DNA of 64,000 bases from Nanobdellota archaeon. GTDB taxonomy: Archaea; Nanobdellota; Nanobdellia; Pacearchaeales; GW2011-AR1. Positions 24,349 through 48,496 of the stretch are shown piece after piece; the stretch's first letter is position 1, and the number at the start of each line of letters is the position of its first letter. The notes beneath the pieces were generated by a model. The model was not told where the DNA came from. It saw only the letters and a program-made list of their open reading frames with translations, and searched no databases. The DNA is taken from positions 11,208-75,207 of the forward strand of contig JBBSYE010000008.1 in assembly GCA_038045385.1 (NCBI GenBank), read 5' to 3'. The translations under genes and the position numbers were made by a program.

Positions 24349-24371
24349 CCCCTTTGGCTCCAGCCAAAAAA

Positions 24372-24965: not shown

Positions 24966-24986
24966 ATTTGGTCTTAGTGCTAGAGC

Positions 24987-25083
24987 CATTCCAAAAGCAT
25001 AGCCGTTGTTGTCGTTCCAGTTGTTGCCATTGACGTTCAACCTGTTGCTGTCCGCGTTCCTGTTGGAATTCAAATCCGCAACC
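24987..25083 (-). repeat. DGR template repeat (TR)
   Basis: 97 nt, AAC-rich (reads N-S-N-R-N-A-D-S-N-R-L-N-V-N-G-N-N-W-N-D-N-N-G-Y). It ends 22 nt upstream of the RT ATG and aligns to 25322-25421. Confidence 0.85.
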
Positions 25084-25285
25084 GGACTATGTAGCCTTTT
25101 GCTCTAAAGTAAAATCACCAATGCTTCATTGTTCGCTCTGCTCATTTTCGTTCCTTCATCGCTACCAAATGTTGCATCTGCATTTCATACCCTTACGAGC
25201 ATAAGCAAAAGGCGTGTGGCCCTAGCGTGGTTTTATACCAAACTAAGACAAAATAATAGAGAAATCTCTTGTTAATAAGTGTTTA

Positions 25286-30111: not shown

Positions 30112-30129
30112 TAAAGTATATAAAGTATA
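30112..30129 (+). repeat. Tandem 9-nt duplication taaagtata x2 in the promoter region of the RHH/pilin-like operon
   Basis: taaagtata occurs at 30112-30120 and again at 30121-30129. It is TATA-like and lies about 20-30 nt upstream of the GTG at 30146. Confidence 0.6.
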
Positions 30130-30145
30130 TTTTGTGTTATTTTAT

Positions 30146-30286
30146 GTGAAAACTAGAGTTTCATTTACTATTGAAGAGGATTTAGATAAGAAGCTTGATG
30201 CTAAACTCAAGGATACAAAATATAGAAATAAGTCTCATTTGATTGAAATTGCTCTACGTAAATTTATTGAGGAGAAAAATGATTAA
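30146..30286 (+). CDS. Ribbon-helix-helix (CopG-like) DNA-binding protein
   Basis: 46-aa ORF absent from the track: VKTRVSFTIEEDLDKKLDAKLKDTKYRNKSHLIEIALRKFIEEKND. It starts at GTG (start uncertain) and overlaps the next gene by 8 nt. Confidence 0.5.
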   Translation: MKTRVSFTIEEDLDKKLDAKLKDTKYRNKSHLIEIALRKFIEEKND

Positions 30287-31031
30287 AAGAGGACAAGTAG
30301 TTATTTTTGTTATAATTGCGCTTTTGCTTATCGGAGCTTTGCTTTTATTTTTTACTCTGCGAAATTCCCCAAGTGTAGCGATTGGGGAAGAATTTTCTGC
30401 ACAAGCTTTCTTAGGGCAATGTTTACGTCCTGAAATAGTGAAAAATGTTGATTCTCTTCTTGCTAAAGGCGGATTTGCTGAGCCGAATGATACAATTATT
30501 TACGATGATAAAAAAATAATTTATTTGTGTAAAAATATAAATTATTATGAAAAATGTATAATGCAACATCCAACTTATATTGATGAAGTCAGAAACGAAC
30601 TTGAGCGAGAACTTGGGGATGAGATTACGAATTGTTTTACTCTTTTGAACGATGAATTGAATAGAAGAGGATTTAATGTATCTGAAAAAGAACTTGAGTA
30701 TTCTGCTGTTCTAAAACAGGGCTCTGCTGAAATTTCTATTGACAAAGAACTTGTTTTATCAAAGGGAGAAACAAGCGAGAGTTTTGATAATTTTATTATT
30801 ATCGCAAAAAGCCCTATTTATGAGCTTCTTGATGCTGCTCAAGAAATAGCTCGGCAAGAGGGACAGTTCTGTTATTTTGAAAACCTTGGATATAGTTTAA
30901 TTTATCGGGATATAAGTATCGATAAAGATATCATGTCAGAAGCAACAAAGATTTATACACTTACCCATAAGGAAAGTGGGAAGAAACTGATGATTGCAAT
31001 AAGGGGGTGTGCTATTCCAGCCGGACTATGA
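30279..31031 (+). CDS. Pilin-like protein A1 (class III signal peptide plus ~220-aa globular domain)
   Basis: MIKRGQVVIFVIIALLLIGALLLFF. Paralogous to 34735-35496 (for example LGQCLRPE/MRSCLKSK, IIYLCKN/IQYLCYT, and a PAG ending). Confidence 0.6.
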   Translation: MIKRGQVVIFVIIALLLIGALLLFFTLRNSPSVAIGEEFSAQAFLGQCLRPEIVKNVDSLLAKGGFAEPNDTIIYDDKKIIYLCKNINYYEKCIMQHPTYIDEVRNELERELGDEITNCFTLLNDELNRRGFNVSEKELEYSAVLKQGSAEISIDKELVLSKGETSESFDNFIIIAKSPIYELLDAAQEIARQEGQFCYFENLGYSLIYRDISIDKDIMSEATKIYTLTHKESGKKLMIAIRGCAIPAGL

Positions 31032-34000
31032 AATTAACTGCTTTATTTGAGATTGCGCTTCTAGTTGTTGCGATTGCTTCTTTTTCTTATATCATTGGCC
31101 AGTATGATGCTCAAATAGGAGAGATAGAAGAAGAGGGGAAATTTGTTAAGGCCGCTAGAGGAATAATAATAGGTTTACTTGATGATAATTTAGTTTCTGC
31201 GGCAGATGGTATTTGGACTTGTGCGCAAGATAAACAGGGAAGTGTTTGTCAAGAATATCCTGCAATTAATTGTAATGCAAATTGCAACGTTCCATGTTTT
31301 ACTGGGAGAAGAGCTGACTTTGGGGATTGTCGCTTGGGAACTTGTATTGATAAAATAGAAGGAACTTGCTCTCCGCAGAGTCCAAAAAAACTTTGTGAAT
31401 CCGGAAGTGGGGTGTGGAAAGCTGATGAGACTTCTGAGCTTGTTGAATGTAGAAGAGGATGCTGTCTTATTGGGGATGGAGCTCAATTTTTAACCGAAAA
31501 AAGTTGTCAGACTTCACAGGCGAGATTGGGGCTTGCGGGAGAATTTAGGCCCGTTGATAATGAACTTCAATGCCTTGCTTTAGCAAATAGGGAAGTTGAG
31601 GGGGCGTGTGTATTTGGCTTAGAAGAAGATAGAAGTTGTAAATTCATTAAAAAGGGAAGCTGTCTTGATCAGGGAGGACAATTCTTTGAGAATAAGCTAT
31701 GTTCAAGTGCTGAATTGCAAACTGATTGTGAAAAACAAAAAAGAATTGGATGCTTTCCAGATAGAGATGAAGTCTATTGGTTTGATAGTTGTGGAAATCG
31801 CGAGAATATATATGATGCGAATAAAGATAAAAGTTGGAATAACGGTTTAATCTTGGCTAAAGGGGGCAGTTGTGAATTAGCCATAGGAAATAATTTGCTG
31901 GCTAGACAGGGAAGTTGTGGAAATTGTAATTATCTTTTAGGTAGTGTTTGTGGTGTGCCTAGAGCGCAGGATGAAAAGCCTTCTGCTGGAAATGCTGTAT
32001 GTCGCGACTTAAATTGTATTGATGAAAAGGGAAATAAGAGAAAACATGGAGAGGCCTGGTGTGCTTTTGAAAGTCAAATTGGGATAGAAGGAACTGGTAA
32101 TGCGCAGAGAAGTGTTGACGTGCCGGGAAGCACTCATTACAGAAAGGTTTGCTTTGAAGGGGAGATAAAAATTGAGCCTTGTCAGGGTTTTAGAAATGAA
32201 GTTTGCGTTGAATCTAGAGATGAAGTAGCTAAGTTTTCGCAGGCGCAATGTAGAGTTAATTTATGGCAGAAATGTCTTGAAGCAAATGGCGATAAGGATA
32301 AACTTGCTGATTGTGAGAAAACTACAGATTGTAAGATAAAAACTGTTGACTTAGGAAAAGGATTTAAGTTTGACAGATGCGTTCCTAAAACTCCACCTGG
32401 TTTTGATTTATTAGCTAACGCAGGAGGAGAAGTCTCAGAAGGTCTTTGTAGTCTTGGGACGCAGACTTGTACAGTAGTTTATCAGAAAAGCATTACCGGA
32501 AAATGGAAGTGTAAACAAAATTGCGATTGTAGAAAAGCAAAGTTTACGGAAACTATGAATAATCTTTGTATGAGTTTGGGAGATTGTGGGGCTAGTGTTA
32601 ATGTTGCTGGAGAATTTACTGATGCAGGTTATAGTGTTAAGAAAGCGCCTAAGTTATCGCAGGCTTACATTGCCGCGCTGAAAACGCTAGCGACGCCAAA
32701 AGAGGGGCAGAAAGTTGCGCCTTTATCTGAAGCGGAAATTACGGCGCTCTTTAATTTGGACCCTTCACAATCATCAAGTTCAAAGCAAAGTAAAATTGGC
32801 GAATATCTTGGATATCTTGGCCTTGGAGCTACAGGCACTGCTTATGCTGCGGGGGCAATTCTTGGTCCTTCTGTAGGGCCTGGAGCGATAAGTTATACCT
32901 TTGGTCAATTTGGCGCTTGGGGAAATGCTCTCGGTTCTGTCGCAGCTGGGGCTGCAATAGGTTTTGTCATTGGAAAAGCTCTTGGATTAGAGGGGGATGC
33001 TTTGACGGCAGTTGTTTTAGCGAGCGCAATTACGGCGGTAGTAGTCACGCAATTTTTCAATGTTGCTCTATTAAGTTTTGCATTCCTTGCTTGGGTTGGA
33101 GGTGTTGGATTAGTAGTAGGTATTGGTCTTTTACTTATTGGAGTTGGTAAAACTAAGAAAGTAAAAGTTGAATTTACATGTAATCCTTGGCAACCGCCTA
33201 AAGGAGGAGCAAGTTGTGATAAATGTGGAAAAGATGGATTACCTTGTAATAAATATCAATGTCAAAGTCTCGGGCAGTTATGTGAGTTTGTAAACGAAGG
33301 GACAAAAGATGAAGCCTGTATAAATGTAAATCCAAATGATGTTCTTTCGCCGATAATAAAGCCATATCAAGACGCGCTTATTGGAGGTTTTAGTTATACT
33401 AATATCGGAGATAATGGATATACTTTGAAAGGGTCTGGAAGCGATGGATGTGTTCCTGCATACCAACAAGTTCGCTTTGGAATTTCTCTAAATGAAAGAG
33501 GAGCTTGTAAGATTGATAGCGTGAGAAAAGTGAATTTTGATGCTATGGAATTTAATTTTGGAGGAAGTAGTTTGTATAAATTTAATCATACACAAATTCT
33601 ATTCCTTCCATCCCTTGATGCTCTTGCTCAAGCGCAAAGCGAGGGTGTTGTGCAAGATAATGAAGAGCCAATTGATACTGACTTGACAGTTGTTATTGAT
33701 CCTACAAAGAGAAATGATTTTACTATTTATGCAAGATGTCAAGATAAATCGGGAAATAGTAACGTGAATGAATATGCTATTAACTTCTGTATTTCTGCTG
33801 CGCCAGATAGAACTGCGCCAATAATAAATGAATTCATTCCTGCTTCGCCAGGATATATTGCTTTTGGAGGAACTGGAAGAAATGTTACATTTTTTGTTAA
33901 TGAGCCATCTGAATGTCGCTGGGCTAGCATTGATAGCGATTATGATTCAATGACTCAGCAAGCAATATGTAATAGCGACGTGGAAGATGTAACAATAAAA

Positions 34001-34696
34001 GGATTTGAATGCTCGACAAACTTGCCTGTTACGACTGATGTGAGTAATTACTATTTCAGATGTAAAGATCAACCTTGGCTGACTGGAAATGTGACTTTGG
34101 ATAATGGAAAGACTAGAAATAAGAATGCACAAAGCGCTCTTTATGTTTTAAGAAAGACTGCTATTCCATTGACTATTGTTTCTATAAATCCAAATAATAA
34201 AACGATAAGTTCTGGCGGAATTCCGATTGTTGTTGACTTGGAAGTTCAAACTGCTGGAGGGCAAGGACCAAGATATTGCGAATTTAGTAGTGCGGGGCAG
34301 TTTGTAACCTTCTTTGAAAATTCTGGAGATAGACATAAACAGCCAGGATTACAATTTATTGAACAGAGAGCTTATGATATCCCTATTAGATGTAAAGATG
34401 AGGCAGGGAATGTTGCTAGTTCTTCTGCGAAATTTACAACATATATTGATAATCAAGGGCCAAGGATAACTAGGGCCTTTAGACAAAATGGATTGACTAT
34501 TGTGACTAATGAAAATGCAAGATGCGCTTATAGCTTGAGAGATTGCACATTCTTATTTTCAAATGGAACTTTGCTGACTGGAAATGAACTTGTGCATAGC
34601 ACTTCATTTAATATTACGGCGACACATTACGTTTCTTGCAGAGATAGATTTGATAATCCTGGAGCTTGTATAGCAGTCAGAGCAGGAGAATTTTGA
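31028..34696 (+). CDS. Giant Cys-rich surface protein B1 (fused form): N-terminal Cys-rich ectodomain, Gly/Ala-rich multi-TM core, C-terminal Cys knot plus four Ig/HYR-like repeats
   Basis: The ATG at 31028 overlaps the A1 stop (ATGA). The N-terminal half is paralogous to 35493-37034 and the C-terminal half to 38830-41283. RC(K/R)D..GN motifs recur. Confidence 0.7.
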   Translation: MKLTALFEIALLVVAIASFSYIIGQYDAQIGEIEEEGKFVKAARGIIIGLLDDNLVSAADGIWTCAQDKQGSVCQEYPAINCNANCNVPCFTGRRADFGDCRLGTCIDKIEGTCSPQSPKKLCESGSGVWKADETSELVECRRGCCLIGDGAQFLTEKSCQTSQARLGLAGEFRPVDNELQCLALANREVEGACVFGLEEDRSCKFIKKGSCLDQGGQFFENKLCSSAELQTDCEKQKRIGCFPDRDEVYWFDSCGNRENIYDANKDKSWNNGLILAKGGSCELAIGNNLLARQGSCGNCNYLLGSVCGVPRAQDEKPSAGNAVCRDLNCIDEKGNKRKHGEAWCAFESQIGIEGTGNAQRSVDVPGSTHYRKVCFEGEIKIEPCQGFRNEVCVESRDEVAKFSQAQCRVNLWQKCLEANGDKDKLADCEKTTDCKIKTVDLGKGFKFDRCVPKTPPGFDLLANAGGEVSEGLCSLGTQTCTVVYQKSITGKWKCKQNCDCRKAKFTETMNNLCMSLGDCGASVNVAGEFTDAGYSVKKAPKLSQAYIAALKTLATPKEGQKVAPLSEAEITALFNLDPSQSSSSKQSKIGEYLGYLGLGATGTAYAAGAILGPSVGPGAISYTFGQFGAWGNALGSVAAGAAIGFVIGKALGLEGDALTAVVLASAITAVVVTQFFNVALLSFAFLAWVGGVGLVVGIGLLLIGVGKTKKVKVEFTCNPWQPPKGGASCDKCGKDGLPCNKYQCQSLGQLCEFVNEGTKDEACINVNPNDVLSPIIKPYQDALIGGFSYTNIGDNGYTLKGSGSDGCVPAYQQVRFGISLNERGACKIDSVRKVNFDAMEFNFGGSSLYKFNHTQILFLPSLDALAQAQSEGVVQDNEEPIDTDLTVVIDPTKRNDFTIYARCQDKSGNSNVNEYAINFCISAAPDRTAPIINEFIPASPGYIAFGGTGRNVTFFVNEPSECRWASIDSDYDSMTQQAICNSDVEDVTIKGFECSTNLPVTTDVSNYYFRCKDQPWLTGNVTLDNGKTRNKNAQSALYVLRKTAIPLTIVSINPNNKTISSGGIPIVVDLEVQTAGGQGPRYCEFSSAGQFVTFFENSGDRHKQPGLQFIEQRAYDIPIRCKDEAGNVASSSAKFTTYIDNQGPRITRAFRQNGLTIVTNENARCAYSLRDCTFLFSNGTLLTGNELVHSTSFNITATHYVSCRDRFDNPGACIAVRAGEF

Positions 34697-34734
34697 TGCG
34701 TAACTATTATAAACATTTGTCAGCTTCTAGAAAG

Positions 34735-35496
34735 ATGAAAAGAGGACAGGTAGCAATTTTTGTGATAGTTGCTATTGTGCTTGTAGGATTTGTTCTAGCT
34801 CTTTTCTTTTTACCGCAAGCTCGTGTTCTGCTACCTGGGGGAGAATCTCAAGATCCTGGAAGTTTTATGCGTTCATGTTTGAAGTCTAAATTAGAAGAAG
34901 GATTGGGGAAGCTGGCTGAACAGGGAGGCTCTTTGAATCCGTCTCCTTCTACTTCTTATCAAGGAAAAGAAATTCAATATCTATGTTATACTGATGAAAA
35001 TTATCTTCCTTGTATTGTGCAGAAACCGCTTCTTGTAAAAAGTTTTCAACAAGAACTTGAGAATTATGTTCGTTCAGATGTTAAAAGATGTGTCTCTGAT
35101 TTAAAAAGCGATTATGAATCTAGAGGTTACACTGTAAGCTCGAGCAGTGGAGATTTTAACGTAAGCATAATTCCAGGAAGAATATCTCTTGAACTTGAAG
35201 AGGGAATTACGATAAGCAAGGAAACTACGCAAACTTTTAAGTCATTTTCAGCGACGCAAAGCAGCGAGCTTTACAACTTATTATTGATTGCTACGAGTAT
35301 AGTGGATTTTGAATCTAAACTTGGAGATTCAGAAACAACTTTATATATACAATATTACCCTGAATTAAAGATAGAGAAAATGAGAAGAGATGCTGATAAA
35401 ATTTATACTTTAACTAACGTGAATAGTGGAGAGAGCTTTACTTTTGCTACACGAAGTTTAGTCTGGCCTGCGGGCTTTGGAGGAGAGTTATCGTGA
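34735..35496 (+). CDS. Pilin-like protein A2 (class III signal peptide), paralog of A1
   Basis: The ATG at 34735 gives MKRGQVAIFVIVAIVLVGFVLALFF. A TATA-like ctattataaa lies about 26 nt upstream. The stop overlaps the next GTG start. Confidence 0.6.
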   Translation: MKRGQVAIFVIVAIVLVGFVLALFFLPQARVLLPGGESQDPGSFMRSCLKSKLEEGLGKLAEQGGSLNPSPSTSYQGKEIQYLCYTDENYLPCIVQKPLLVKSFQQELENYVRSDVKRCVSDLKSDYESRGYTVSSSSGDFNVSIIPGRISLELEEGITISKETTQTFKSFSATQSSELYNLLLIATSIVDFESKLGDSETTLYIQYYPELKIEKMRRDADKIYTLTNVNSGESFTFATRSLVWPAGFGGELS

Positions 35497-37034
35497 AGAA
35501 ATTTATTTTTGCTTTGGGGTTTTTTACTTTGTTTATTTTTACTTTTAGTCTTTCTTCAGCCTTGACTGCAACGGTTTGTTGTGAGAAGACTAAACTTGGA
35601 GCTTTTTGTCAGAATGCTCCTGCTGAACAATGTGATTCTGCTTTTCAACAAGTGCAGACTAGTTGCGATTCAACAAGCTTTTGCAAGGCAGGAACTTGCT
35701 ATGACTCTAGCGAGGGAACTTGCTTGGATAATACTCCACAAAGAGTATGCAATGCTAATGGCGGAGTTTGGAGTGCAGAGGCGCCAGCTCAATGTAACCT
35801 TGGATGTTGCGTTCTTGGAGACCAAGCTGCTTTTGTTTCGCTTGTGAGATGCAAAAGATTATCTTCTTTTCTTGGATTACAAACTAATTTTAATAGTGGA
35901 ATTGGAAATGAAGTTTCTTGTATAGCTTCAGTTCAAGCACAAGATAAAGGGGCGTGTGTTTATGAGTTTGAATTTGAGAAAACCTGCAAGTTTACGACGA
36001 GAGCTGAATGTTCTGCAAGTACAGGAACAAGTAATGGAACTACTTCTGGAGGAAATTTTTATAAGGATAAATTATGCTCGGCTGAAGAACTTGGAACTAT
36101 TTGTGGACCTTCACAGAAGACTACTTGCGCTCCTGGAAAAGATGAAGTCTATTTTGTTGATACTTGCGGAAATCCTGCGAATATTTATGACTCAAGTAAG
36201 GCAAGCGATAAAGAATATTGGACTAATGTAAAGCAAAAGAGTGAGAGTTGTGCTCCAAATAGCGCGAATGCTGGAAGTTCAAGCTGCGGAAATTGTAATT
36301 ATCTTCTTGGAAGTTTTTGTAGAAGTGAAAGTGCCTCTAATGGGAGAGCTAGAATTGGGAACAATATTTGTGCTGATTTGAATTGTGTTGATGAAAATAA
36401 TGTGGAAAGAAAACATGGAGAGTCTTGGTGTTTGAATGATGATAAGCAGACTGGAAAAGCAGCAAATAGTGTTGGAAGTAGATTCTTTAGAAGGATATGT
36501 ATGAATGGGGAAGTCGTTACCGAACCTTGCGGAGATTTTAGAGCGCAAGAATGTGTTCAAGATGAGATTGAAACTTCTCTTGGTAAATTCTCACAGTCTG
36601 CTTGTCGTGTTAATAGATGGCAAGATTGCTTAGCTCAAACTGAAAAGCTAGATTGTGAAAATACGGATAGAAGAGACTGTATATGGAAAGCTGGGTTGGA
36701 ATTGGCGAATGAAACTATAAATGGCGTTTGTGTTCCGGCTAATACTCCTGGACTGAATTTTTGGAATAGCGAAGAGACAAAGACAATTTGTGGACAGGGA
36801 AATAAAGCTTGCGTTGTGACTTATGAAAAAGGATTATTTGGGGGAGAGGAGTGTGTTGATAATTGTGAATGTCTTGAAACTGGATGGGAACAGAATTATG
36901 CTAACCTTTGTTCGTCTTTGGGAGATTGCGGGCCTAAATTGAATTGGGCTGGAAGTAAGGGATTCAAAGAAGGATACAAGAAGCAAATTGGCGGGGAAAA
37001 GCTCTTGAAAGAGCTTGGACTTGCTGAAGAATAG
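35493..37034 (+). CDS. Cys-rich secreted protein B2N, paralog of the N-terminal half of B1
   Basis: Has a signal peptide. Blocks shared with B1 include GCCVLGDQAAF, SSCGNCNYLLGSFC, CADLNCVDENNVERKHGESWC, FSQSACRVNRWQDC and LCSSLGDCGP. Confidence 0.65.
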   Translation: MKKFIFALGFFTLFIFTFSLSSALTATVCCEKTKLGAFCQNAPAEQCDSAFQQVQTSCDSTSFCKAGTCYDSSEGTCLDNTPQRVCNANGGVWSAEAPAQCNLGCCVLGDQAAFVSLVRCKRLSSFLGLQTNFNSGIGNEVSCIASVQAQDKGACVYEFEFEKTCKFTTRAECSASTGTSNGTTSGGNFYKDKLCSAEELGTICGPSQKTTCAPGKDEVYFVDTCGNPANIYDSSKASDKEYWTNVKQKSESCAPNSANAGSSSCGNCNYLLGSFCRSESASNGRARIGNNICADLNCVDENNVERKHGESWCLNDDKQTGKAANSVGSRFFRRICMNGEVVTEPCGDFRAQECVQDEIETSLGKFSQSACRVNRWQDCLAQTEKLDCENTDRRDCIWKAGLELANETINGVCVPANTPGLNFWNSEETKTICGQGNKACVVTYEKGLFGGEECVDNCECLETGWEQNYANLCSSLGDCGPKLNWAGSKGFKEGYKKQIGGEKLLKELGLAEE

Positions 37035-37077
37035 CGAAAAAAGAAAAGTTTATATACCCCTCGTAAGTAGTGTTTTT

Positions 37078-37641
37078 ATGAGTAAGTTTAGTAGAAGTGC
37101 TAAAGTAGGAATTTCTGGATTATTGTTAGGCGGTGCTGTATCTTTGCAAGGTTGCGGAGAAATTATCGCTGGGTTGCTTATTTCAGAGGCCATTAATGGC
37201 CAAACTAGAGCATTAAATCAGAATGCTGCTCAAATGGCTAATACTCCTCAAGGTAACGTGCCAGCTTCAAACTATAATCAGAATTATCCAGTAGGAGTTC
37301 CTTCTCAAGCTTCTTTTGTTTGTAACTCTGTTTCTGATGAAAATAGGAATAATTTATTTGATAAATGGGAGATTTCTGGCGAAAAAAATAGTTTTTCTGC
37401 TCATGAAAATGTGAACTTGGGACTTAATGTCTCCGGACGTCAAGGACAAAATTTAATTGTTCGTATTTTTGATGTTTCAACTTTTAATAACGTAGATTCT
37501 ACAAGAATTGGTAGTGTAATTACTAATCCTTCGGCTTTTGTATATACTTTGGAATCTGGTAAGTTAGGGAAGGGCAAATATAAGGCAGAATGGTATGCAG
37601 ATAATAGAGAAATTTGTAGCTCTGTATTTTCAATAAATTAA
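37078..37641 (+). CDS. Lipobox-type secreted protein L1
   Basis: MSKFSRSAKVGISGLLLGGAVSLQGC: signal peptide ending in L-Q-G-C. A TATA-like gtttatata lies about 25 nt upstream. Confidence 0.55.
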   Translation: MSKFSRSAKVGISGLLLGGAVSLQGCGEIIAGLLISEAINGQTRALNQNAAQMANTPQGNVPASNYNQNYPVGVPSQASFVCNSVSDENRNNLFDKWEISGEKNSFSAHENVNLGLNVSGRQGQNLIVRIFDVSTFNNVDSTRIGSVITNPSAFVYTLESGKLGKGKYKAEWYADNREICSSVFSIN

Positions 37642-37662
37642 TTTTTCTTTCGTCTAAATCGG

Positions 37663-37674
37663 AAAATATAAATA
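37663..37674 (+). promoter_or_regulatory. TATA-box-like promoter element for L2 (leaderless)
   Basis: aaaatataaata lies about 25-28 nt upstream of the ATG at 37696. The surrounding roughly 37 nt are near-identical to 38331-38366. Confidence 0.4.
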
Positions 37675-37695
37675 CTATTAATTAACTTTAAAGTG

Positions 37696-38304
37696 ATGAA
37701 ATTAGCTAATAGATTGGTCGCTGGGAGTGTTGGATTAGCTGGGATGTTGAATCTGACTGGATGTATCCCGTTTATGGCCGGATATATTGGTGGTTCGCTA
37801 GCAAACCCTAGAAATCCTGTTTATGTTCCAGTTCCTACGCCTGCTCCGCAACAGAATCCAACTGGATTTTCCATTAAGAATGGTTATTTTAGAGCGGAAG
37901 GAGAAACTCCTTTTAAAAAATGGATTGATGGTGCTAACGGGGGTTTGATTAATGGAATTATGGAAGGAAATGAATTTGTTAATTTTTATCCCGAAGTTGA
38001 AATTAATACGCAAGTTCAAGTCTATATTACGGCTCATTTAATTAACGCTAAAGGATCTACTCTTAATGGAGAGATGAGAACAGCAGAGGGCATCTTAGCG
38101 TATACTGCTTCTCCTTCTTTTGTTGGAGAGGATGGTGAAGTTCTCTTGCCTTGGCCAATTCAATTAAAAAAAATTGTGGAAGAGAGTCCTTCGGAGTCAT
38201 ATTCAACAAGAATGTATATGAACGGTAAATCTGTTGAAGAATTTAGATTTAAGAATACTAATTTTCAACAATTTCAACAAAGCAGTTTGCGTTTTGGTAA
38301 TTAA
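37696..38304 (+). CDS. Lipobox-type secreted protein L2
   Basis: MKLANRLVAGSVGLAGMLNLTGC: signal peptide ending in L-T-G-C. Confidence 0.55.
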   Translation: MKLANRLVAGSVGLAGMLNLTGCIPFMAGYIGGSLANPRNPVYVPVPTPAPQQNPTGFSIKNGYFRAEGETPFKKWIDGANGGLINGIMEGNEFVNFYPEVEINTQVQVYITAHLINAKGSTLNGEMRTAEGILAYTASPSFVGEDGEVLLPWPIQLKKIVEESPSESYSTRMYMNGKSVEEFRFKNTNFQQFQQSSLRFGN

Positions 38305-38332
38305 TAGTAAGAGAATATTTGGTCCTAAATAG

Positions 38333-38345
38333 AAAAATATAAATA
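38333..38345 (+). promoter_or_regulatory. TATA-box-like promoter element for L3 (leaderless)
   Basis: aaaaatataaata lies about 27 nt upstream of the ATG at 38367, within a duplicated intergenic block shared with L2. Confidence 0.4.
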
Positions 38346-38366
38346 CTATCAATTCACTATAAAGTA

Positions 38367-38735
38367 ATGAAAAAGTATAATAGGTTCGCAATAGGAAGTC
38401 TTGGATTAGCTGGAGTTTTAGCTATACAAGGTTGTGGACCTCTTCTTAATGCTGGTGGGCAGTCTGCAATTTATGCAGGAAACGCTGGAGTTGGTATTCC
38501 CTTATCTGCTTTAGGACAAGGCATTGGCGCGATTGAGGCAGGTAGAGCTTCTAGTTCAAATGTTAATGTGAATAATAATTTTAATGGAAATAGTCAATCG
38601 GATAATCGCAATAAAAATTATAGTGATGTTCCATATAAAATGCCTCCAAATCCTTATGAGCCTAAATATAGTGATGTTCCGTATAAGATGCCTGATAATA
38701 ATCCTTATTATAAAAATGCAGATCATAATCCCTGA
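38367..38735 (+). CDS. Lipobox-type secreted protein L3 with YSDVPYKMP repeat
   Basis: MKKYNRFAIGSLGLAGVLAIQGC: signal peptide ending in I-Q-G-C. The tail is Asn/Pro/Tyr-rich. Confidence 0.55.
   Translation: MKKYNRFAIGSLGLAGVLAIQGCGPLLNAGGQSAIYAGNAGVGIPLSALGQGIGAIEAGRASSSNVNVNNNFNGNSQSDNRNKNYSDVPYKMPPNPYEPKYSDVPYKMPDNNPYYKNADHNP
38619..38693 (+). repeat. Two copies of a 27-nt direct repeat, 48 nt apart
   Basis: tatagtgatgttccatataaaatgcct at 38619-38645 versus tatagtgatgttccgtataagatgcct at 38667-38693 (2 mismatches). It encodes YSDVPYKMP. Confidence 0.8.
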
Positions 38736-38829
38736 CGTGCTCTGAGAATAATCTCTATAAAGATTAAAAATAAGATATTCTTGTTCCGCTACACAATATG
38801 TTTATAAGTATGTGTTCTTTTTTAGTTTT

Positions 38830-41283
38830 ATGCTAAAGAGGGCGAATAATTTTGTTGTTTGTGCAACTTTATTTCAAGTAGCGCTTATCGTTTCATTTTC
38901 TATTGCGATTAGTTTCTTAATTGCACAAACAATTCCTTCTGTAATAGCAAATACTAGTCCAGCAGTAAGTGTAGTTCCTGTTAGTCATGTTCCAACTTAT
39001 ACCACTTCTTCAGGTCCGTATGTCTTTGACATTGATTTTGGAAAGGGATCTGTTCCAGTAAAATGGACAGGCACTAATCCAGAGACTGGCATTGCTAATG
39101 GAATTCTTGCTGATGGAACTCCTACTTCATGGAAATCTATTCCCAACTCTGAAATAGCACAGGCAGATATTACCAATAAGTTTTCTGCAGGACAACTTGA
39201 TAATTGGGGTAAAACCACTTTAATTGGTGGAAAGTCTGTTGCTAATGTAGATTTTTTAGGAGATCCTAATAAATTTGGACTAGTTAGAGATGGACAACTT
39301 ACCCCAGAAGGAATAGAAATCGCTGAAAAGGCTGGAATTAAAAACCCTGCAATTGACCCTACAGGAGCCATTGTTGGAAACGGAGAAAGTTATTCATATT
39401 CTCTTTTGGGATATCAAATAACTAGTAACTTCTTTTTGGGTCACCTTATTGAAGGGGCTTCGTGGGCATTGTTTGTTGTTGGGGCTATTCAGTTAGTTGG
39501 AGGAATTGCAGGACTTGATCCAAAATTAACTAATACATTAAGTATTGCTGCGGCTTCTGGAATAATTGGGGGTAAGGCGATTTACGGACTTTTTGGACAA
39601 GCAACTCCTGGTTTAAGTGGAAGCGGTGGAATTGCTGGGGCAGGAGCCCAAGTATTAAGTCCGTTGCAAGCAGGCCTCATCGGCATTGGCATCGCAGCTA
39701 TCGTCTTCGTATTATTATATAAAGATGAAAAGAAAAAAGTTGTTACGCTACAATGCTTGCCGTGGGAAGCGCCACTTGGCGGATCTAAATGCGAGCAATG
39801 TAACGGAGATCCTCTAAAGCCGTGTTCTGAATATCGTTGTAAATCTCTTGGGCAGGCGTGCGAGATTGTTAATAAGGGAACTGCTGAAGAGAGATGTGTT
39901 TGGGTTGCGCGTAATGACGTGAGTAGCGCTACAATTGAACCTTGGGCTGAATCGCTTAAACCGTTGAATCAAGGCTTGAGATTTACTCCTGATAGCACAA
40001 TAAGACCGCCAAATAGAGGAGTTAAGATTGTTAGCAATAAGGCTGGGGGATGCGTTATGCCTTTCACTCCACTTGAATTTGGAATAAGAACTAATGAGCC
40101 GACTCAATGTAAGATAGATACCGAGAGACCGAATGGAACTACTGCTTTTGATAGTATGCAATTTTACTTTGGAGATAGTAATTATTATGCATATAATCAT
40201 ACGCAAACTATGAGATTGCCTTCACCGAATGCTATTGCTGATGAGGCAGGATTAGAGCTTGAGAATAATGGGGCGTTTAATTATTTTGTAAGATGTAGAG
40301 ATGCTAATGGTAACGAAAACGTTGATGATTTTGTAATAAACTTCTGCGTTGATAAAAGTCCTGATACTACTCCTCCTGTGATTGAGTCTACTTCGATAAA
40401 TAGCGGAAGTCCCGTTGGTGCGGGAGTGCAGAATTTATCTTTGGGAGTTTATGTTAACGAACCTAGCCAATGTAAATGGAGTATTCAAGATAAGAACTAT
40501 AATGATATGGAGAATACTATGAGTTGTGTAAGCAAGATTTATCAGCAGAATGCAAAACAGTTGTATCCTTGTGTGGCTAACTTGAATGGGATTAAAGATA
40601 GAGCGACGAATACTTTCTATTTCAGATGTAAAGATCAACCCTTGAAGAATGATAGTGAAAGAAATGTTAATAGCGAGAGTTATGTATTTATTCTAAAAGG
40701 CAGTCAGGCCCTAAATATTATTAAGACTTCTCCTAATTCGACGATAACTGGAAGTACTGATGTTGTGCCTGTTAATTTGAGCGTTGAAACTAGCAATGGG
40801 GCTGAAGAAGGCAAGGCAATATGTTACTTTAGTCCAACTGGAGTTGAGGGAAGTTATGTTTTGATGTTCCAGACTAATAGCTATAAACACACACAGATAT
40901 TATCGTTGACTTCTGGAAATTACAATTATAGATTTAGATGTGTTGATGCTGGAGGAAATGCTGCTGAATCAAGTTCGAGCTTCAACGTCTTGACGGATAG
41001 GCAGGCGCCTTTTGTCACTAGAGTTTATCGTGAGGGAACTGATGCTCTAAAAGTTGTAACTAATGAAGACGCTGAATGCACTTACTCGACTACGAGCTGT
41101 AACTATAATTTTGCTGAAGGTCTTAAATTTATTTATAATCCTGTAACGACTAAGAATCAGCATTTTGCAAGATGGGAATCTAGCAAGACTTACTATATCA
41201 AATGTAAAGATGGATATGATAATCAGCCTGCACCAAATGCTTGTAGCGTTATCGCTAGTGCAACTAATGTTAAACAGAAATAG
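38830..41283 (+). CDS. Cys-rich membrane/surface protein B2C, paralog of the C-terminal half of B1
   Basis: The ATG at 38830 has a TATA-like tttataag about 26 nt upstream. It has a Gly/Ala-rich TM core, then LQCLPWEAPLGGSKCEQCNGDPLKPCSEYRCKSLGQACE, then four RC(K/R)D..GN repeats as in B1. Confidence 0.7.
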   Translation: MLKRANNFVVCATLFQVALIVSFSIAISFLIAQTIPSVIANTSPAVSVVPVSHVPTYTTSSGPYVFDIDFGKGSVPVKWTGTNPETGIANGILADGTPTSWKSIPNSEIAQADITNKFSAGQLDNWGKTTLIGGKSVANVDFLGDPNKFGLVRDGQLTPEGIEIAEKAGIKNPAIDPTGAIVGNGESYSYSLLGYQITSNFFLGHLIEGASWALFVVGAIQLVGGIAGLDPKLTNTLSIAAASGIIGGKAIYGLFGQATPGLSGSGGIAGAGAQVLSPLQAGLIGIGIAAIVFVLLYKDEKKKVVTLQCLPWEAPLGGSKCEQCNGDPLKPCSEYRCKSLGQACEIVNKGTAEERCVWVARNDVSSATIEPWAESLKPLNQGLRFTPDSTIRPPNRGVKIVSNKAGGCVMPFTPLEFGIRTNEPTQCKIDTERPNGTTAFDSMQFYFGDSNYYAYNHTQTMRLPSPNAIADEAGLELENNGAFNYFVRCRDANGNENVDDFVINFCVDKSPDTTPPVIESTSINSGSPVGAGVQNLSLGVYVNEPSQCKWSIQDKNYNDMENTMSCVSKIYQQNAKQLYPCVANLNGIKDRATNTFYFRCKDQPLKNDSERNVNSESYVFILKGSQALNIIKTSPNSTITGSTDVVPVNLSVETSNGAEEGKAICYFSPTGVEGSYVLMFQTNSYKHTQILSLTSGNYNYRFRCVDAGGNAAESSSSFNVLTDRQAPFVTRVYREGTDALKVVTNEDAECTYSTTSCNYNFAEGLKFIYNPVTTKNQHFARWESSKTYYIKCKDGYDNQPAPNACSVIASATNVKQK

Positions 41284-41319
41284 CGAAACCTTTAATTAGC
41301 TTTTTCTTCTTTTGCTAGT

Positions 41320-41793
41320 ATGAGAAAGAGAGGTTTTGAAATGTCCTTTAACTTTATACTTTCAATAATAATAATTGCATTTATTATTGCAGCTGCAGGA
41401 TATGCTGTAAGTCATTTTTTAAGTTTGAGAGATTGTGCTGAAGCGGGACTTTTTTATCAAGAGCTTAAAAGAGAGATAGATAAATCTTGGACTTCTGAAA
41501 TTGCAAGTCAGACTTTTTCTTCGAGTGTGCCTTCTGGTATAGAGAGCATTTGTATTGGTAATGTTAGCACAAGCTCTGATTTGAAAGAGTATGATTCTTT
41601 GAAGAGATATAGACGGCAAGGGTATCTGCTTTTCTTCTATCCTGTTGAGAAAGCTTGCGGTCAGGCAGCATATAAATTGGAACATCTTGATTTGCAGACA
41701 ACTGGAACACTCAAATGCTATCAAGTCAAGGAGGGCAAGGTGAACTTTGTTATTAGTAAAGATAGTGCGGCTTCTCTTGTTTCTATAAAATGA
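41320..41793 (+). CDS. Pilin-like protein (class III signal peptide)
   Basis: MRKRGFEMSFNFILSIIIIAFIIAAAGYAV. The stop overlaps the next start (ATGA). Confidence 0.55.
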   Translation: MRKRGFEMSFNFILSIIIIAFIIAAAGYAVSHFLSLRDCAEAGLFYQELKREIDKSWTSEIASQTFSSSVPSGIESICIGNVSTSSDLKEYDSLKRYRRQGYLLFFYPVEKACGQAAYKLEHLDLQTTGTLKCYQVKEGKVNFVISKDSAASLVSIK

Positions 41794-42722
41794 AGCGCGG
41801 ACTTGAGGTAAGCTTTGCTTGGATTTTTGCAATAATTGTCGGGGCTTTTATTTTATTTCTCGCAGTCTATGGGGCTTTTAATTTTATTTCACAAGGAGAA
41901 GTGCAAACAAATACAGAGACTTCGGCACAACTTGTTGCACTCTTGAGCCCGGTTGAAACTAGAATTGAAAGTGGAAAATATTCTAAAATTGATTTTGGAA
42001 ATGAAATTAGAGTGACGAATAAATGTAGTAGTCTTGGAACTTTTGGAGACCAAACTATCTCGACTCAAGGAAAATCTGGCTTTTCTGGGGGATGGACTGA
42101 ATCAGGAGTTCCTATAAGGATGATTAATAAATATTTTTTCTCCGATTCTATTGAAGAAGGCAAGACTTTGCATATTTTTACTAAGCCTTTTTATTCGCCT
42201 TATAAAATTGGAGACTTAATTATCGCTAGTGCGGATAACTATTGTTTTGTGAATGCTCCTGAAGACATTGTTGATGATTTGAAATCTATGGGCTTACCTC
42301 ATATCTCTTTTACTGACAAAATTAGCAAATGCGTTCAAAATGAGCGAGTTGTTTGCTTTTCGGGGACTTGTGAAATTAAAGTAGATTTAGCTAGAGGGGC
42401 TGTTGTAAAAAATGGGAAAATTGCTTATTATGTTGAAGATGAAAATAACGCAATATTTTATGCGGCAATATTTTCGGACTTGGTGATTTACGAATGTCAA
42501 ATAAAGAGATTGATGAAGAGAAATGCTGAACTAGCGGAACTCTATGCAAGGAAAGCTGAATTTTTACAAGGTAGCGGATGCTCGAGCAACCTTGCGCAAG
42601 AATTAAGAGCTTATTCAAACTTCGCGGGTTCTATAACTGGCTCGGGAGCACTTGGTAGCATAATGCAGGAGGCAGAAAGACTTGGAGATGAAAATGAAGT
42701 CCTTAGCTGTAGATTATTCTAG
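41790..42722 (+). CDS. Pilin-like protein (class III signal peptide), 310 aa
   Basis: MKRGLEVSFAWIFAIIVGAFILFLAVYGA. Confidence 0.55.
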   Translation: MKRGLEVSFAWIFAIIVGAFILFLAVYGAFNFISQGEVQTNTETSAQLVALLSPVETRIESGKYSKIDFGNEIRVTNKCSSLGTFGDQTISTQGKSGFSGGWTESGVPIRMINKYFFSDSIEEGKTLHIFTKPFYSPYKIGDLIIASADNYCFVNAPEDIVDDLKSMGLPHISFTDKISKCVQNERVVCFSGTCEIKVDLARGAVVKNGKIAYYVEDENNAIFYAAIFSDLVIYECQIKRLMKRNAELAELYARKAEFLQGSGCSSNLAQELRAYSNFAGSITGSGALGSIMQEAERLGDENEVLSCRLF

Positions 42723-43206
42723 AGGGCAGTTGAAAATACAGCAGATGGCTTTTGTACTAGTCGCCTTAATGATATTATTTGGAATTGTTATTATATTTTA
42801 CGTTTCAATAAAAACTGCCTCGCTTAAAAGTAGCGCTGAGGATATAGGAGATTTGAGATCTAGAGAGCTTGCTCGCAAACTTGCTGGAAGTCCTGAATTT
42901 ATTTATCCTTCTGGAGAGTGTGCCGCGTGTATTGATTTTGATAAAGTATTCGTGCTTAAGGAGAAAGCGCAATCTGGAGAGTATAGCTCATTTTGGGCAT
43001 CTCCACTTATTCAAGTAAGAAAGTTGGGATATGGGGAAGATTGTAATAGGCAAAACTACCCGAATTGTGGAGTTATAACGCTTAGTAACACGAGCGATGA
43101 TTTTAGCTCTGTAAGTTCTTTTGTAACTTTATGTCATTATGACTCTGCTATAAATGCTGAAAGATGTGAATTGGGTAAGATTGTTTTGGGGGTTAAAAGG
43201 CAATGA
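42688..43206 (+). CDS. Pilin-like protein (class III signal peptide)
   Basis: MKMKSLAVDYSRGQLKIQQMAFVLVALMILFGIVIIFYV. The start (42682, 42688 or 42694) is uncertain. It overlaps its neighbours on both sides. Confidence 0.5.
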   Translation: MKMKSLAVDYSRGQLKIQQMAFVLVALMILFGIVIIFYVSIKTASLKSSAEDIGDLRSRELARKLAGSPEFIYPSGECAACIDFDKVFVLKEKAQSGEYSSFWASPLIQVRKLGYGEDCNRQNYPNCGVITLSNTSDDFSSVSSFVTLCHYDSAINAERCELGKIVLGVKRQ

Positions 43207-43706
43207 AAAGAGGGCAAGAAGAGATAATTGGATTTGTTGCCATAGTAATTTTGCTTGCAGTAATTTTTCTTGTTTTTCTTGTGATATCATTTAGAAGCCC
43301 GGTTGAGGATATAAGAGAAAATAGTGAGGCGTATTACTTCTTATCAAGTGTCATGGAAGTTACAAGTAACTGCACTCGAGGACTTGATAATCAAGCTCTG
43401 AAGATAGCGGAACTTGCAAGTTCTTGTAGGCAAAATGATAAGTGTAACAATGACTTGGGCTCATGTGATGTGCTGAACATGACGTTAAATTATCTTGTTC
43501 AAGAAGGATTCAGACCTGGAGAAGATAGCGTGACTAAAGGGTATGTTTTAAAGACTAGATATGTTAGTAATTTAAGTTCTGGGCAAACTGGACAGGATAT
43601 TTCATCTATTAGCTCCGGAGTGTGTGGAAATTCTTTTAGCGGGGCTAGTTATTCAGTGCCAGATTATCCTGGGGTAATTACTTTTGAGTTAAAACTTTGC
43701 TCTTAA
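43203..43706 (+). CDS. Pilin-like protein (class III signal peptide)
   Basis: MKRGQEEIIGFVAIVILLAVIFLVFLV. The mature part contains several Cys. Confidence 0.55.
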   Translation: MKRGQEEIIGFVAIVILLAVIFLVFLVISFRSPVEDIRENSEAYYFLSSVMEVTSNCTRGLDNQALKIAELASSCRQNDKCNNDLGSCDVLNMTLNYLVQEGFRPGEDSVTKGYVLKTRYVSNLSSGQTGQDISSISSGVCGNSFSGASYSVPDYPGVITFELKLCS

Positions 43707-44059
43707 ATTTTAATTTCTATATGTACTGTATCTGCTAAAATTGAAGGTTTAAGACGAGTTCTTTTTCCAGTGCCTTCTTTTTTTAACTCTATAAATCCGA
43801 AGCGTTCTAGAAGTTTTACATCTTCGTATACTGACTTAAAGTTTCTTGAGACTAATTTAGCTAGCGCATAAACTGAAGATGGCTTCTTTGCTTTTATTGT
43901 ATGTAGTATTCTCGCTTTCTCATTTGAAAGTAGTTTCCTTAATGCTGAAAGTCCTTCGAAATCATATGGACTTTCATTGCCGAACATCTTGAAGAATGTT
44001 GAAAATGTTCCTTTGTCGTCGGTGATTGTTATCTCTCTAACTTTAGTTTTTGTGGCCAT
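43703..44059 (-). CDS. Winged-helix transcriptional regulator (ArsR/MarR-like, COG4190-type)
   Basis: ARILHTIKAKKPSSVYALAKLVSRNFKSVYEDVKLLERFGFIELKKEG is an HTH plus wing. The gene is convergent with the pilin-like operon and divergent from the S-layer gene. Confidence 0.55.
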   Translation of the reverse strand: MATKTKVREITITDDKGTFSTFFKMFGNESPYDFEGLSALRKLLSNEKARILHTIKAKKPSSVYALAKLVSRNFKSVYEDVKLLERFGFIELKKEGTGKRTRLKPSILADTVHIEIKI

Positions 44060-47246: not shown

Positions 47247-47780
47247 ATGAGAGCAATTGAAAGTTTTGAAGTGAGAGAGAAAAGAAGCAAAAGGAATAGA
47301 CTGATTATGGGCGTTCTTCTTATTGGCCTTATGGTGCTAAGTACAGCGGGTTACGCTTTTTATGGCGTGACTGATGCATCCGATTCTAATGTTTCAAGTG
47401 GGGGAATAAGATATGACGGAAGCTATTGGATATTTCCCTCAAGTTACTCGGATTTATATCTTTTTAATGACCCAACGAATATTGTTAAAGTTAATCTGAA
47501 TAATAGGGCTTTGAACTATGGGGGAAAGATCTTGTATATTGATTCTGAAGATAGCTTCGTTAGAGAGCATTTGGCTCTTAACTTGGGGACTTATTTTAAT
47601 GGAGTTTATGAGGCATGTTATGGTCCTTGCTTGAGAGACTTGCCTGAAAAAGATTGTAGTGAACCAATAATAATCTATCGAGATAGCTCAGAGAACTCTA
47701 TAAGGCAGGAACAGAATTGCTTTTTCATTAACGGAGATACAGGAGAGGTGGATAAGTTCATATTGAGCTTTACGCAATAA
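47247..47780 (+). CDS. Membrane-anchored hypothetical protein
   Basis: 177 aa with an N-terminal basic stretch plus TM (LIMGVLLIGLMVLSTAGYAF). Confidence 0.45.
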   Translation: MRAIESFEVREKRSKRNRLIMGVLLIGLMVLSTAGYAFYGVTDASDSNVSSGGIRYDGSYWIFPSSYSDLYLFNDPTNIVKVNLNNRALNYGGKILYIDSEDSFVREHLALNLGTYFNGVYEACYGPCLRDLPEKDCSEPIIIYRDSSENSIRQEQNCFFINGDTGEVDKFILSFTQ

Positions 47781-47821: not shown

Positions 47822-48496
47822 ATGACTGAAGACACTAAAATAGAAACTAAAGGAGAGAAAAAGAAGGAGAGAAAAATTGAGCATGAAATAATGTGGATAG
47901 TGGGTTTTGCAGTTGTGCTAGTGCTTATTTTTTTGGGAACTCAGCAGATTGTAAAATGGAATACTCAATTTGATTATGAGGGGCTGCATTTTACTAAAAC
48001 TAAAATAGGGAAAATTCCATTATATCATTATTATTATAACTTTGTTGATTCACAAGAAAATACTATAAGATATAATATGTATTTAAGAACAGATCCTAGA
48101 AAGAATGATATTCCTATTGATAGACCAGTGTTGATGACTACTAAACTCGCTTATGTTGCACTTGATTTAACGAGTGATTTGGAGGGATGTTCTGATAGTA
48201 ATCTTGCCGTCGGAGATTTTGCTTTATTTTTGCAACAGAATCAATTTGCCGTCAAGTCAGGTATTACTAATGAAAGTCTCGCGGACGAACTTGGGAAGGA
48301 TTATGTTACGTGTGAGCTTAAAGATACTGTTGAGGTTTTTGAAATAACTAGAGGTGAAGAAACTAGAATTGAATCTGAAGGTTTATGTACTAAAATTATT
48401 GTTGGTCCAGATTGCGAGATATTAAATGCTATAGAAAAGCTTAAAGTTTCAATAGTCTCTGATGCTCGTTCTAGAGCTCAAGGTCTTATTGGGTAG
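47822..48496 (+). CDS. Membrane-anchored hypothetical protein
   Basis: 224 aa with a K/E-rich N-terminus, then a TM (IMWIVGFAVVLVLIFLG). Confidence 0.45.
   Translation: MTEDTKIETKGEKKKERKIEHEIMWIVGFAVVLVLIFLGTQQIVKWNTQFDYEGLHFTKTKIGKIPLYHYYYNFVDSQENTIRYNMYLRTDPRKNDIPIDRPVLMTTKLAYVALDLTSDLEGCSDSNLAVGDFALFLQQNQFAVKSGITNESLADELGKDYVTCELKDTVEVFEITRGEETRIESEGLCTKIIVGPDCEILNAIEKLKVSIVSDARSRAQGLIG

Follow-up and report, generated by a model that had tools for sequence, protein, structure and literature searches.

Introduction

Bacterial type IVa minor pilins (FimU-PilVWX-PilE) are encoded by several pilin-like genes in a fixed order, beside PilY1, a non-pilin surface protein of more than 1000 amino acids (aa). 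The type II secretion system (T2SS) pseudopilus tip (GspH-I-J-K) and the Com minor pilins (ComGD-GG) each consist of four co-encoded pilin-like proteins, one of them much larger than the others. A recent census of archaeal type IV filaments describes loci with dedicated adhesins in subsystems 4A and 4B, where pilins are combined with a large adhesin-like protein that in 4B is built of immunoglobulin (Ig) folds (10.64898/2026.04.22.720090). ArlF and ArlG (FlaF and FlaG) join a pilin-like helix to a beta-rich domain that contacts the S-layer. In the Sulfolobus bindosome (Bas), class III signals are carried by globular surface proteins that stay cell-associated and form no long filaments; its cargo consists of sugar-binding proteins that work with ABC transporters, and an ATPase and a membrane protein dedicated to the system are encoded within the Bas locus. 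Here we describe a locus with partial likeness to these systems, found in a 64,000-nucleotide stretch of DNA (hereafter ‘the window’) from a Nanobdellota archaeon (assembly GCA_038045385.1, contig JBBSYE010000008.1, positions 11,208 to 75,207 of the forward strand). It encodes six pilin-like proteins (A1, A2 and P1-P4), two copies of a giant cysteine-rich protein (B1, and a second copy split into B2N and B2C) and three putative lipoproteins (L1-L3), and adjoins an S-layer gene.

The proteins of this cluster probably build a cell-surface structure. Our preferred reading, which we hold tentatively and at somewhat short of even chances, is that they form a core envelope complex of Woese-/Pacearchaeota-type DPANN archaea, consisting of pilin-like subunits and two giant B paralogues and assembled in trans. 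Few uncultivated archaea are as widespread as Woesearchaeota and Pacearchaeota, for both of which a life attached to other cells is presumed; we know of no protein assigned so far to the surface by which they make contact. The locus offers a near-universal set of candidates, comprising the six pilin-like proteins, the two giant B proteins and a conserved lipoprotein, all encoded next to the S-layer gene. A literature search returned no paper describing the A, B or P families or the locus itself.

The locus departs in several respects from the systems introduced above. PilY1 has a C-terminal beta-propeller (Pfam Neisseria_PilC), often with an N-terminal vWA domain, whereas B has neither by Pfam or Foldseek; B is moreover an integral membrane protein with its own A partner for each copy, the A-B and P1-P4 genes are separable, and no ATPase, platform or peptidase gene lies nearby. 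An analogy to minor pilins and PilY1, proposed in an earlier note made from this sequence, is apt for P1-P4, whose order and overlaps are kept, and inapt for B, which is not PilY1-like in fold or sequence. The P proteins resemble the T2SS and Com sets in being four in number with one much larger member (P2, 310 aa) and in their conserved cleavage-site residues, and a short, non-extended structure is plausible here as well. They show no sequence or hidden Markov model (HMM) similarity to those sets, however, and their acidic residues are at +2/+3 relative to the predicted cleavage site rather than at +5; the setting also differs, being an archaeon with an S-layer and without an outer membrane or secretin. 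Subsystems 4A and 4B are defined by ATPase and platform genes in cis, of which there are none here, their pilin and adhesin families differ from ours, and the census does not mention the present locus (10.64898/2026.04.22.720090). Neither an ABC transporter or sugar-binding cargo nor an ATPase and membrane protein of its own, as in the bindosome, was seen at the locus. As for ArlF/ArlG, the position of P1-P4 next to an S-layer gene is suggestive of the likeness, but the locus lacks an archaellum operon, its proteins share no HMM similarity with ArlF/ArlG, and we know of no ArlF/ArlG proteins occurring as a set of four.

Gene organization of the locus

The cluster comprises 13 co-directional plus-strand genes (RHH, A1, B1, A2, B2N, L1-L3, B2C and P1-P4; window positions 30134-43706), which are separated by short gaps or share 4-base overlaps. 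The earlier note had counted twelve genes and placed the start at 30112, which lies 22 bases upstream of the RHH open reading frame (ORF); the rest of its layout, including the convergent regulator and the S-layer gene downstream, agrees with the positions given here (the arrow marks the predicted cleavage site):

30134-30286, plus strand: RHH, a small DNA-binding protein of CopG type whose gene opens module 1 (Pfam RHH_1, E 7e-8)
30279-31031, plus strand: A1, 250 aa; class III-type signal (MIKRG↓QVVIF...) plus a globular domain that contains Cys
31028-34696, plus strand: B1, 1222-aa membrane protein; its start overlaps the A1 stop (ATGA)
34735-35496, plus strand: A2, paralogue of A1 (MKRG↓QVAIF...); GTGA overlap with the B2N start
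35493-37034, plus strand: B2N, 513 aa, Cys-rich and predicted to be secreted, with a Sec-type signal peptide; counterpart of the B1 N-domain
37078-37641, plus strand: L1, lipobox-type (..SLQGC); genes of its family mostly lie between B2N and B2C
37693-38304, plus strand: L2, lipobox-type (..LTGC)
38367-38735, plus strand: L3, lipobox-type (..IQGC), with an Asn/Pro-rich tail
38812-41283, plus strand: B2C, 823-aa membrane protein without the Cys-rich N-domain
41320-41793, plus strand: P1, 157-aa pilin-like protein (MRKRG↓FEMSF...)
41790-42722, plus strand: P2, 310-aa pilin-like protein (MKRG↓LEVSFAW...); ATGA overlap with P1
42682-43206, plus strand: P3, pilin-like protein of ~170 aa (..SRG↓QLKIQQMAF), start codon uncertain
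43203-43706, plus strand: P4, 167-aa pilin-like protein (MKRG↓QEEIIGF); ATGA overlap with P3
43703-44059, minus strand: convergent winged-helix (wHTH) regulator (Pfam HVO_A0114, E 2e-18)
44428-47121, plus strand: S-layer-like protein, with a signal peptide and without a C-terminal anchor

The gene overlaps suggest a fixed stoichiometry of the products. Apart from the two regulators and the six proteins with class III signals, all proteins of the locus are predicted to be secreted, lipid-anchored or membrane-embedded. The predicted signal peptides of L1-L3 each end in a lipobox with an invariant Cys. Across 83 related loci that we compared (each with ~10 kb of flank), there are 35 L1-like homologues, nearly all of which have (S/T/G)GC at the end of the signal peptide, while L2 and L3 have no homologue among the 83. 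The S-layer-like protein of the window has no Pfam match; in related loci, Pfam S_layer_C is present in the orthologous neighbours of its gene.

Class III signals of the pilin-like proteins

Alignments of 150 A, 22 P3 and 20 P4 sequences revealed a strict pattern around the predicted cleavage site. In the A family, position -1 is occupied by Gly (119 sequences), Ala (21) or Ser (10) and by no other residue, position +1 is Gln in all 150, and Lys or Arg is found at -2 in 129 and at -3 in 132; taken at their shortest, the leaders are mostly 4-12 aa long. The same holds for P3 and P4, in which -1 is again Gly, Ala or Ser (15, 6 and 1 sequences for P3; 14, 5 and 1 for P4), +1 is Gln without exception (22/22 and 20/20), both -2 and -3 are basic and the leader is short. 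The residues that follow are close to fixed, reading QEEIVGF in P4, QxKIQQMAF in P3 (where Q, K, I, Q, Q and M, within positions +1 to +7, are each present in 21-22 of the 22 sequences) and Q(V/I)(T/A)IF(V/I)I in A, and in the A and P proteins a hydrophobic stretch of ~20 residues begins directly after the site. Class III signals are built in this way, and a plain membrane anchor would need neither Gly, Ala or Ser at -1 nor an invariant Gln at +1. A class III (type IV pilin-like) signal architecture, which the earlier note had proposed, is thus strongly backed by sequence conservation for A1, A2, P3 and P4. P1 and P2 display the same layout, with (E/D)-x-S-F after the site, but have Glu or Asp at +2 or +3.

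The pilin-like proteins are also related to one another: P1 and P2 are homologous over their first 80 residues (hhalign probability 95.7%), and A aligns with P4 over ~117 columns (80%). Profile searches, which for A and P4 report the best matches only, retrieved 557 A clusters at E<=1e-30 (5002 at E<=1e-3) and 406 P4 homologues, which are ~160-180 aa long among the matches listed. Sub-threshold matches among family members to Pilin_N (1 of 19), DUF7288 (1 of 19), DUF7289 (2 of 19) and DUF7287 (1 of 66), all N-terminal families of archaeal pilins, are faint but point the same way. Searches of PDB sequences with the A, P2 and P4 profiles gave nothing significant; with A, an archaeal flagellin N terminus scored only E 1.6.

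A motif scan of the full 64 kb identified nine class III-like N termini, six of which belong to A1, A2 and P1-P4. Two others were set aside, since the match at 9261 looks like an ordinary signal peptide and that at 51459 like a small hydrophobic protein, so that six of the seven good candidates lie inside the locus. The seventh (3405-3956, plus strand, outside the locus) is a 183-aa protein beginning MVKRG↓ALELSVGTIVILVLAM; it has no Pfam, NCBIfam or PHROGs match and could be a major pilin.

Domain structure of the giant B proteins

B1 consists, from its N terminus, of a transmembrane (TM) helix with a conserved Glu, a Cys-rich ectodomain of ~500 aa (the N-domain), a Gly/Ala-rich hydrophobic core, a Cys knot and four beta-sandwich domains. 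Dozens of cysteines had been noted in the B proteins, and the counts are 65 in B1, 43 in B2N and 22 in B2C; about 50 are invariant across 90 B homologues. An AlphaFold2 model of B1 residues 31-1229, built on the 90-sequence alignment, reached a mean predicted local distance difference test (pLDDT) score of 83.9. The N-domain is modeled confidently and opens with four hairpin-helix modules, whereas the Gly/Ala-rich region is modeled with low confidence as three to four helices. This core has four hydrophobic segments with small-residue zipper patterns, and the N-terminal helix together with these four segments would place both large domains of B outside the cell. AlphaFold2 and Foldseek confirm the Gly/Ala-rich core described in the earlier note and, where it saw Ig/HYR-like repeats, tandem beta-sandwich domains at the C-terminal end. 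The RC(K/R)D..GN ending that it ascribed to each repeat is only approximate, the four sequences in B1 being RCQDKSGN, RCKDQPWL, RCKDEAGN and SCRDRFDN.

Apart from the RHH and wHTH regulators, no protein of the cluster, the A, B and P proteins included, has a Pfam, NCBIfam, PHROGs or PADLOC family match above cut-off, and a search of PDB sequences with B1 gave nothing significant. A match of B2C to Big_13 (E 0.005) falls below the cut-off and there is no HYR match; the beta-sandwich fold is backed by AlphaFold2 and Foldseek. With the full B1 model, Foldseek returned only generic tandem Ig, cadherin and titin arrays (TM-score at most 0.14). Modeled alone, the N-domain reached a pLDDT of 92.4 and had no PDB or BFVD match at E<=1e-3 (best PDB match, E 0.49; best BFVD match, E 6.9e-3 with a probability of 0.08). 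The three-domain, beta-rich ectodomain of fusexins and class II fusogens is not matched by this model, and fusogen, PilY1, lectin and toxin identities for B were all dropped after Foldseek found no relatives. The earlier note recognized neither the A nor the B family, and named a match of B to a well-characterized unrelated family as grounds for rejecting its reading; in the HMM and structure searches, B matches no characterized family. In public databases, B homologues are named ‘Yip1 family’, ‘glycine zipper family’ or ‘DMT family transporter’, which appear to be artefacts caused by the hydrophobic core.

At the N termini of B1 (31028-31130) and B2C (38812-38950), the B-type helix has a conserved acidic or amide residue within its membrane span (..LFEI.. 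in B1 and ..S(E/Q)IF.. in B2C) and ends in ..ES. A small residue (Ala, Ser, Gly or Cys) precedes this conserved residue and could mark either a cleavage site or a helix-packing feature. Elsewhere in the window, a gene at 2665-3060 (plus strand) encodes a VKOR-family protein (Pfam E 1.3e-26), which implies disulfide formation outside the cytoplasm and fits the many Cys-rich surface proteins of the window.

Duplication of the A-B module

Pairwise alignments support the proposal that the locus contains duplicated A-B modules. Residues 45-535 of B1 align with B2N (37% identity, E 8e-93) and residues 600-1224 with B2C (32% identity, E 2e-89), so that B1 corresponds to B2N plus B2C, and A1 aligns with A2 from end to end (31% identity, E 8e-40). 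A and B genes are paired in essentially all 83 related loci and in the window are coupled by ATGA or GTGA overlaps.

In related loci, too, the second B copy is usually split. An unsplit B2 of 1330-1357 aa is found in loci L046, L087 and L088, B2C is lost in L006-L008, and three A-B pairs are present in L043 and L083. B2C retains the B-type N-terminal TM helix (consensus ..(E/Q)IF.L....SFAF.I.ES), the Gly/Ala-rich core and the four beta-sandwich domains. We considered and rejected the possibility that the split copy is a pseudogene: the split is common, and because B2C keeps the N-terminal helix and B2N has acquired a Sec signal peptide, it is best viewed as a functional rearrangement rather than decay.

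Conservation and distribution of the locus

B1 has at least 448 homologues, nearly all of 1200-1390 aa, in Nanoarchaeota, Pacearchaeota and Woesearchaeota bins, none of them meaningfully annotated, and in a scan of one genome per species a B relative was encoded in at least 492 species genomes. The order seen in the 83 related loci is primase (minus strand), PCNA, RHH, A, B, A, B2N, lipobox protein and B2C; it is kept down to ~33% identity, being shared with Woese-/Pacearchaeota genomes of only 33-66% identity. An RHH homologue (47-65 aa) was found upstream of A1 as 49 ORFs in the 83 loci. The order and overlaps of P1-P4 are likewise kept to ~33% identity, and the wHTH gene and then the S-layer gene follow P1-P4 wherever the sequence reaches far enough. 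The position of the locus between PCNA/primase and the S-layer gene is maintained in distant relatives, and its G+C content (0.35-0.40) is the same as that of its flanks. The term ‘island’, applied to it in the earlier note, is not borne out by this composition and clade-wide chromosomal synteny.

The 14-kb unit is made up of two modules, RHH-A-B and P1-P4-wHTH-S-layer. They adjoin each other here and in many relatives, though not in all, and are separate in many genomes. Of the 40 loci whose sequence continues for 3.2 kb or more past their last B-type ORF, 14 have all four P genes there.

Median identity to the window proteins across 22 loci was 72% for PCNA and 55% for primase. Within the locus it was 59% for B2N (the most conserved protein of the cluster) and for the wHTH regulator, 46% for B2C and A2, 45% for P3, 42% for B1, 41% for P2, 38% for A1 and P4 and 37% for P1. 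The S-layer protein could be aligned in the closest relative only. Within B, the ectodomains are the better conserved parts, with pairwise identities of 0.40-0.53 as against 0.30-0.33 for the linker and hydrophobic core. Judged by these rates, the conservation of B looks like that of a core machine or of a binder of a generic ligand, and not like that of a fast-evolving, host-specific adhesin.

Two further genes follow the S-layer gene (47247-47780 and 47822-48496, plus strand) and encode N-terminally anchored, Cys-containing proteins of 177 and 224 aa, neither with a Pfam match. Genes of similar size occupy the same position in L007, L086 and L087, and the two proteins may belong to the S-layer module.

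Proposed envelope complex

In the envelope complex that we favor, a prepilin peptidase (FlaK/PibD type) encoded elsewhere in the genome would cleave the leaders before the invariant Gln. The freed hydrophobic N termini of P1-P4, and probably of A1 and A2, would then pack into a short filament or pseudopilus-like stalk, comparable for P1-P4 to a minor-pilin tip complex. The A subunits would couple this stalk to the membrane-embedded B1 and to the B2N/B2C pair, whose ectodomains would be held at or beyond the S-layer and would bind a conserved ligand on another cell or surface. Expression would be regulated by the RHH and wHTH proteins. We hypothesize that such a structure could be the ‘host-attachment organelle’ suggested in the earlier note. 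Its broader description as a pilus- or pseudopilus-associated adhesion device draws support from the class III signals, the novelty of B and the order of P1-P4, and is weakened by the lack of a nearby ATPase, the separable modules and the slow evolution of B. If pilin-like subunits do work here without a nearby pilus ATPase, or without any, the known uses of the class III signal would be widened.

Several observations weigh against this reading. The acidic +2 residue of P1, P2 and P4 is atypical for archaeal class III signals, and the A and P proteins of the window match no model in Pfam (including Class_IIIsignal, Pilin_N and archaellin) or NCBIfam. The core of B may cross the membrane a different number of times than proposed, which would change the side on which the C-terminal half lies, and a Lys-rich stretch follows its last helix. 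The ectodomains of B evolve slowly, at a housekeeping level, which argues against a host-specific tip adhesin. P1-P4 show tighter linkage with the wHTH and S-layer genes than with A-B: in L086, P1-P4, wHTH and S-layer genes occur without A-B, and at least seven of the loci inspected have Hjc and tRNA-synthetase genes downstream of B2C instead of P1-P4. Finally, the machinery expected of a pilus is not at the locus. Motif searches of the window and the 83 related loci gave no T2SSE-type Walker A signature, and those of the 83 loci no multi-pass A24-like ORF with GxGDxK. The adjoining contig sequence, 10 kb beyond one window end and 5.7 kb beyond the other, shows no pilus machinery; genes called in the 10-kb part match no T4P Pfam family. 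To these is added a preprint reporting that components of the type IV pilus (T4P) are missing in DPANN genomes, in which Pacearchaeota are described as unusually firmly host-attached (10.1101/2020.05.14.094862).

Searches with Pfam and NCBIfam models for T2SSE, T2SSF and Peptidase_A24 were likewise negative for ORFs of at least 365 aa and several membrane ORFs, the smaller ORFs having been scanned only in part, and no assembly ATPase or platform protein family is found among the annotated neighbours in related loci. The earlier observation that no assembly ATPase, platform protein or prepilin peptidase is encoded in the window was thereby reproduced for the ORFs scanned. The case for machinery acting in trans comes from the literature, which conflicts. 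Set against the preprint above, FlaI, FlaJ and FlaK are annotated in Woesearchaeota (PMC8407392), archaellins are highly expressed in Woesearchaeota (PMC11606122), and Nanoarchaeota sensu stricto have two T4P systems (PMC6142677). Membership of the locus in the type IV filament class is accordingly partial: the signal features of the class are present, whereas its locus-level features are absent and its curated models give no match.

A more radical version of the proposal is that the locus encodes a clade-wide envelope organelle that lacks a canonical pilus motor altogether. Pilin-like helices and a five-helix, glycine-zipper B would form a stalk or conduit across the envelope, and disulfide-rich heads of novel fold would dock on a conserved feature of the partner cell. 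We regard this as unlikely; if true, it would be a host-contact or uptake device of uncultivated symbionts. More generally, we take the locus to be a pilin set with large surface proteins, and give a fair, if minor, chance to its being something more distinct.

Alternative explanations

The main rival explanation, which we consider doubtful, is that the locus specifies an S-layer anchor or pseudoperiplasm scaffold without a pilus motor. The pilin-like N termini would in that case be membrane anchors, cleaved or not, and P1-P4, possibly with B, would keep the S-layer protein, itself without an anchor, at a set spacing from the membrane, in the manner of ArlF/ArlG or SlaB in other archaea. Such a role accords with the succession of P1-P4, wHTH and S-layer genes even where A-B lie elsewhere (L086), with an S-layer protein that has a signal peptide and no C-terminal anchor, with the lack of an ATPase near the locus in any genome examined, and with the housekeeping-level conservation of a locus that is near-universal in the clade. 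A precedent is FlaF, an S-layer-binding beta-sandwich on a pilin-like N-terminal helix (PMC4425475). A plain anchor, however, requires neither the small residue at -1 nor the invariant Gln at +1, P and B change far more slowly than the S-layer protein (which is awkward for tight structural partners), and a scaffold leaves the 500-aa Cys-rich domains unexplained. It is improbable, in our view, that the locus is instead an uptake apparatus, in which a bindosome-like surface assembly and a channel formed by the glycine-zipper helices of B would import host-derived compounds. The Sulfolobus bindosome does set a precedent for class III signals on surface proteins that form no filament, the Gly/Ala-zipper core of B has conserved small residues and its N-terminal helix a conserved Glu or Gln, and slow evolution would fit a generic ligand; the metabolism of Pacearchaeota is minimal (10.1101/2020.05.14.094862). 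No substrate-binding-protein fold or ABC transporter is found at the locus, on the other hand, and the hydrophobic core, which would line the putative pore, is modeled at low confidence.

Two further explanations involve other kinds of machinery. B might belong to a membrane-fusion or cytoplasmic-bridge apparatus, acting as a Cys-rich fusogen akin to fusexins or the class II proteins of viruses and so connecting the cell with its host. Its large disulfide-rich ectodomain does adjoin several membrane helices, and cytoplasmic connections between DPANN archaea and their hosts have been described, with the proteins behind them unidentified (PMC11329633). This is nevertheless very improbable, given that Foldseek with the confident N-domain model finds no fusogen or other relative, that no fusion loop or trimerization feature was identified in B and that the locus is absent from IMG/VR contigs. 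The last alternative, that the locus is an island gained by horizontal transfer and derived from a virus, a mobile element or a defence system, was considered on account of a diversity-generating retroelement (DGR) 4 kb upstream. The proteins have no PHROGs or PADLOC matches, there are no B relatives in viral contigs, and the G+C content equals that of the flanks; because chromosomal synteny is conserved across the clade, we consider such an origin effectively refuted.

Neighbouring features of the window

The DGR upstream of the locus is complete (23878-26068, minus strand). Its reverse transcriptase is split into two ORFs (24372-25073 and 23878-24348) with FGNLTSQ and YVDD motifs, and Rfam assigns 25086-25248 to an RT-16 RNA (88.8 bits). 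Between the template repeat (25002-25083) and the variable repeat (25340-25421) there are 17 mismatches, all of them at template adenines (17 of 28), and the variable repeat encodes residues 216-243 of a 260-aa target ORF (25286-26068).

Downstream of the S-layer gene, a pacearchaeosortase (49131-49652, minus strand; NF033505, 195.8 bits) adjoins a gene for a 546-aa CARDB protein (49697-51337, minus strand) with a C-terminal TM helix and basic tail, which from these features is likely to be a sortase substrate. In L086, too, this pair of genes comes after the S-layer gene. The presence of a pacearchaeosortase confirms the lineage from which the window comes.

The window also encodes unannotated type I surface proteins, each with a signal peptide and a C-terminal TM helix:

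968-2668, plus strand: 566 aa
20788-21981, minus strand: 397 aa
22018-23835, minus strand: 605 aa, with 28 Cys

Another unannotated type I surface protein, of 1587 aa, is encoded just past the start of the window (L084:273-5036). The genes for the 605-aa and 397-aa proteins are syntenic upstream of primase in L002.

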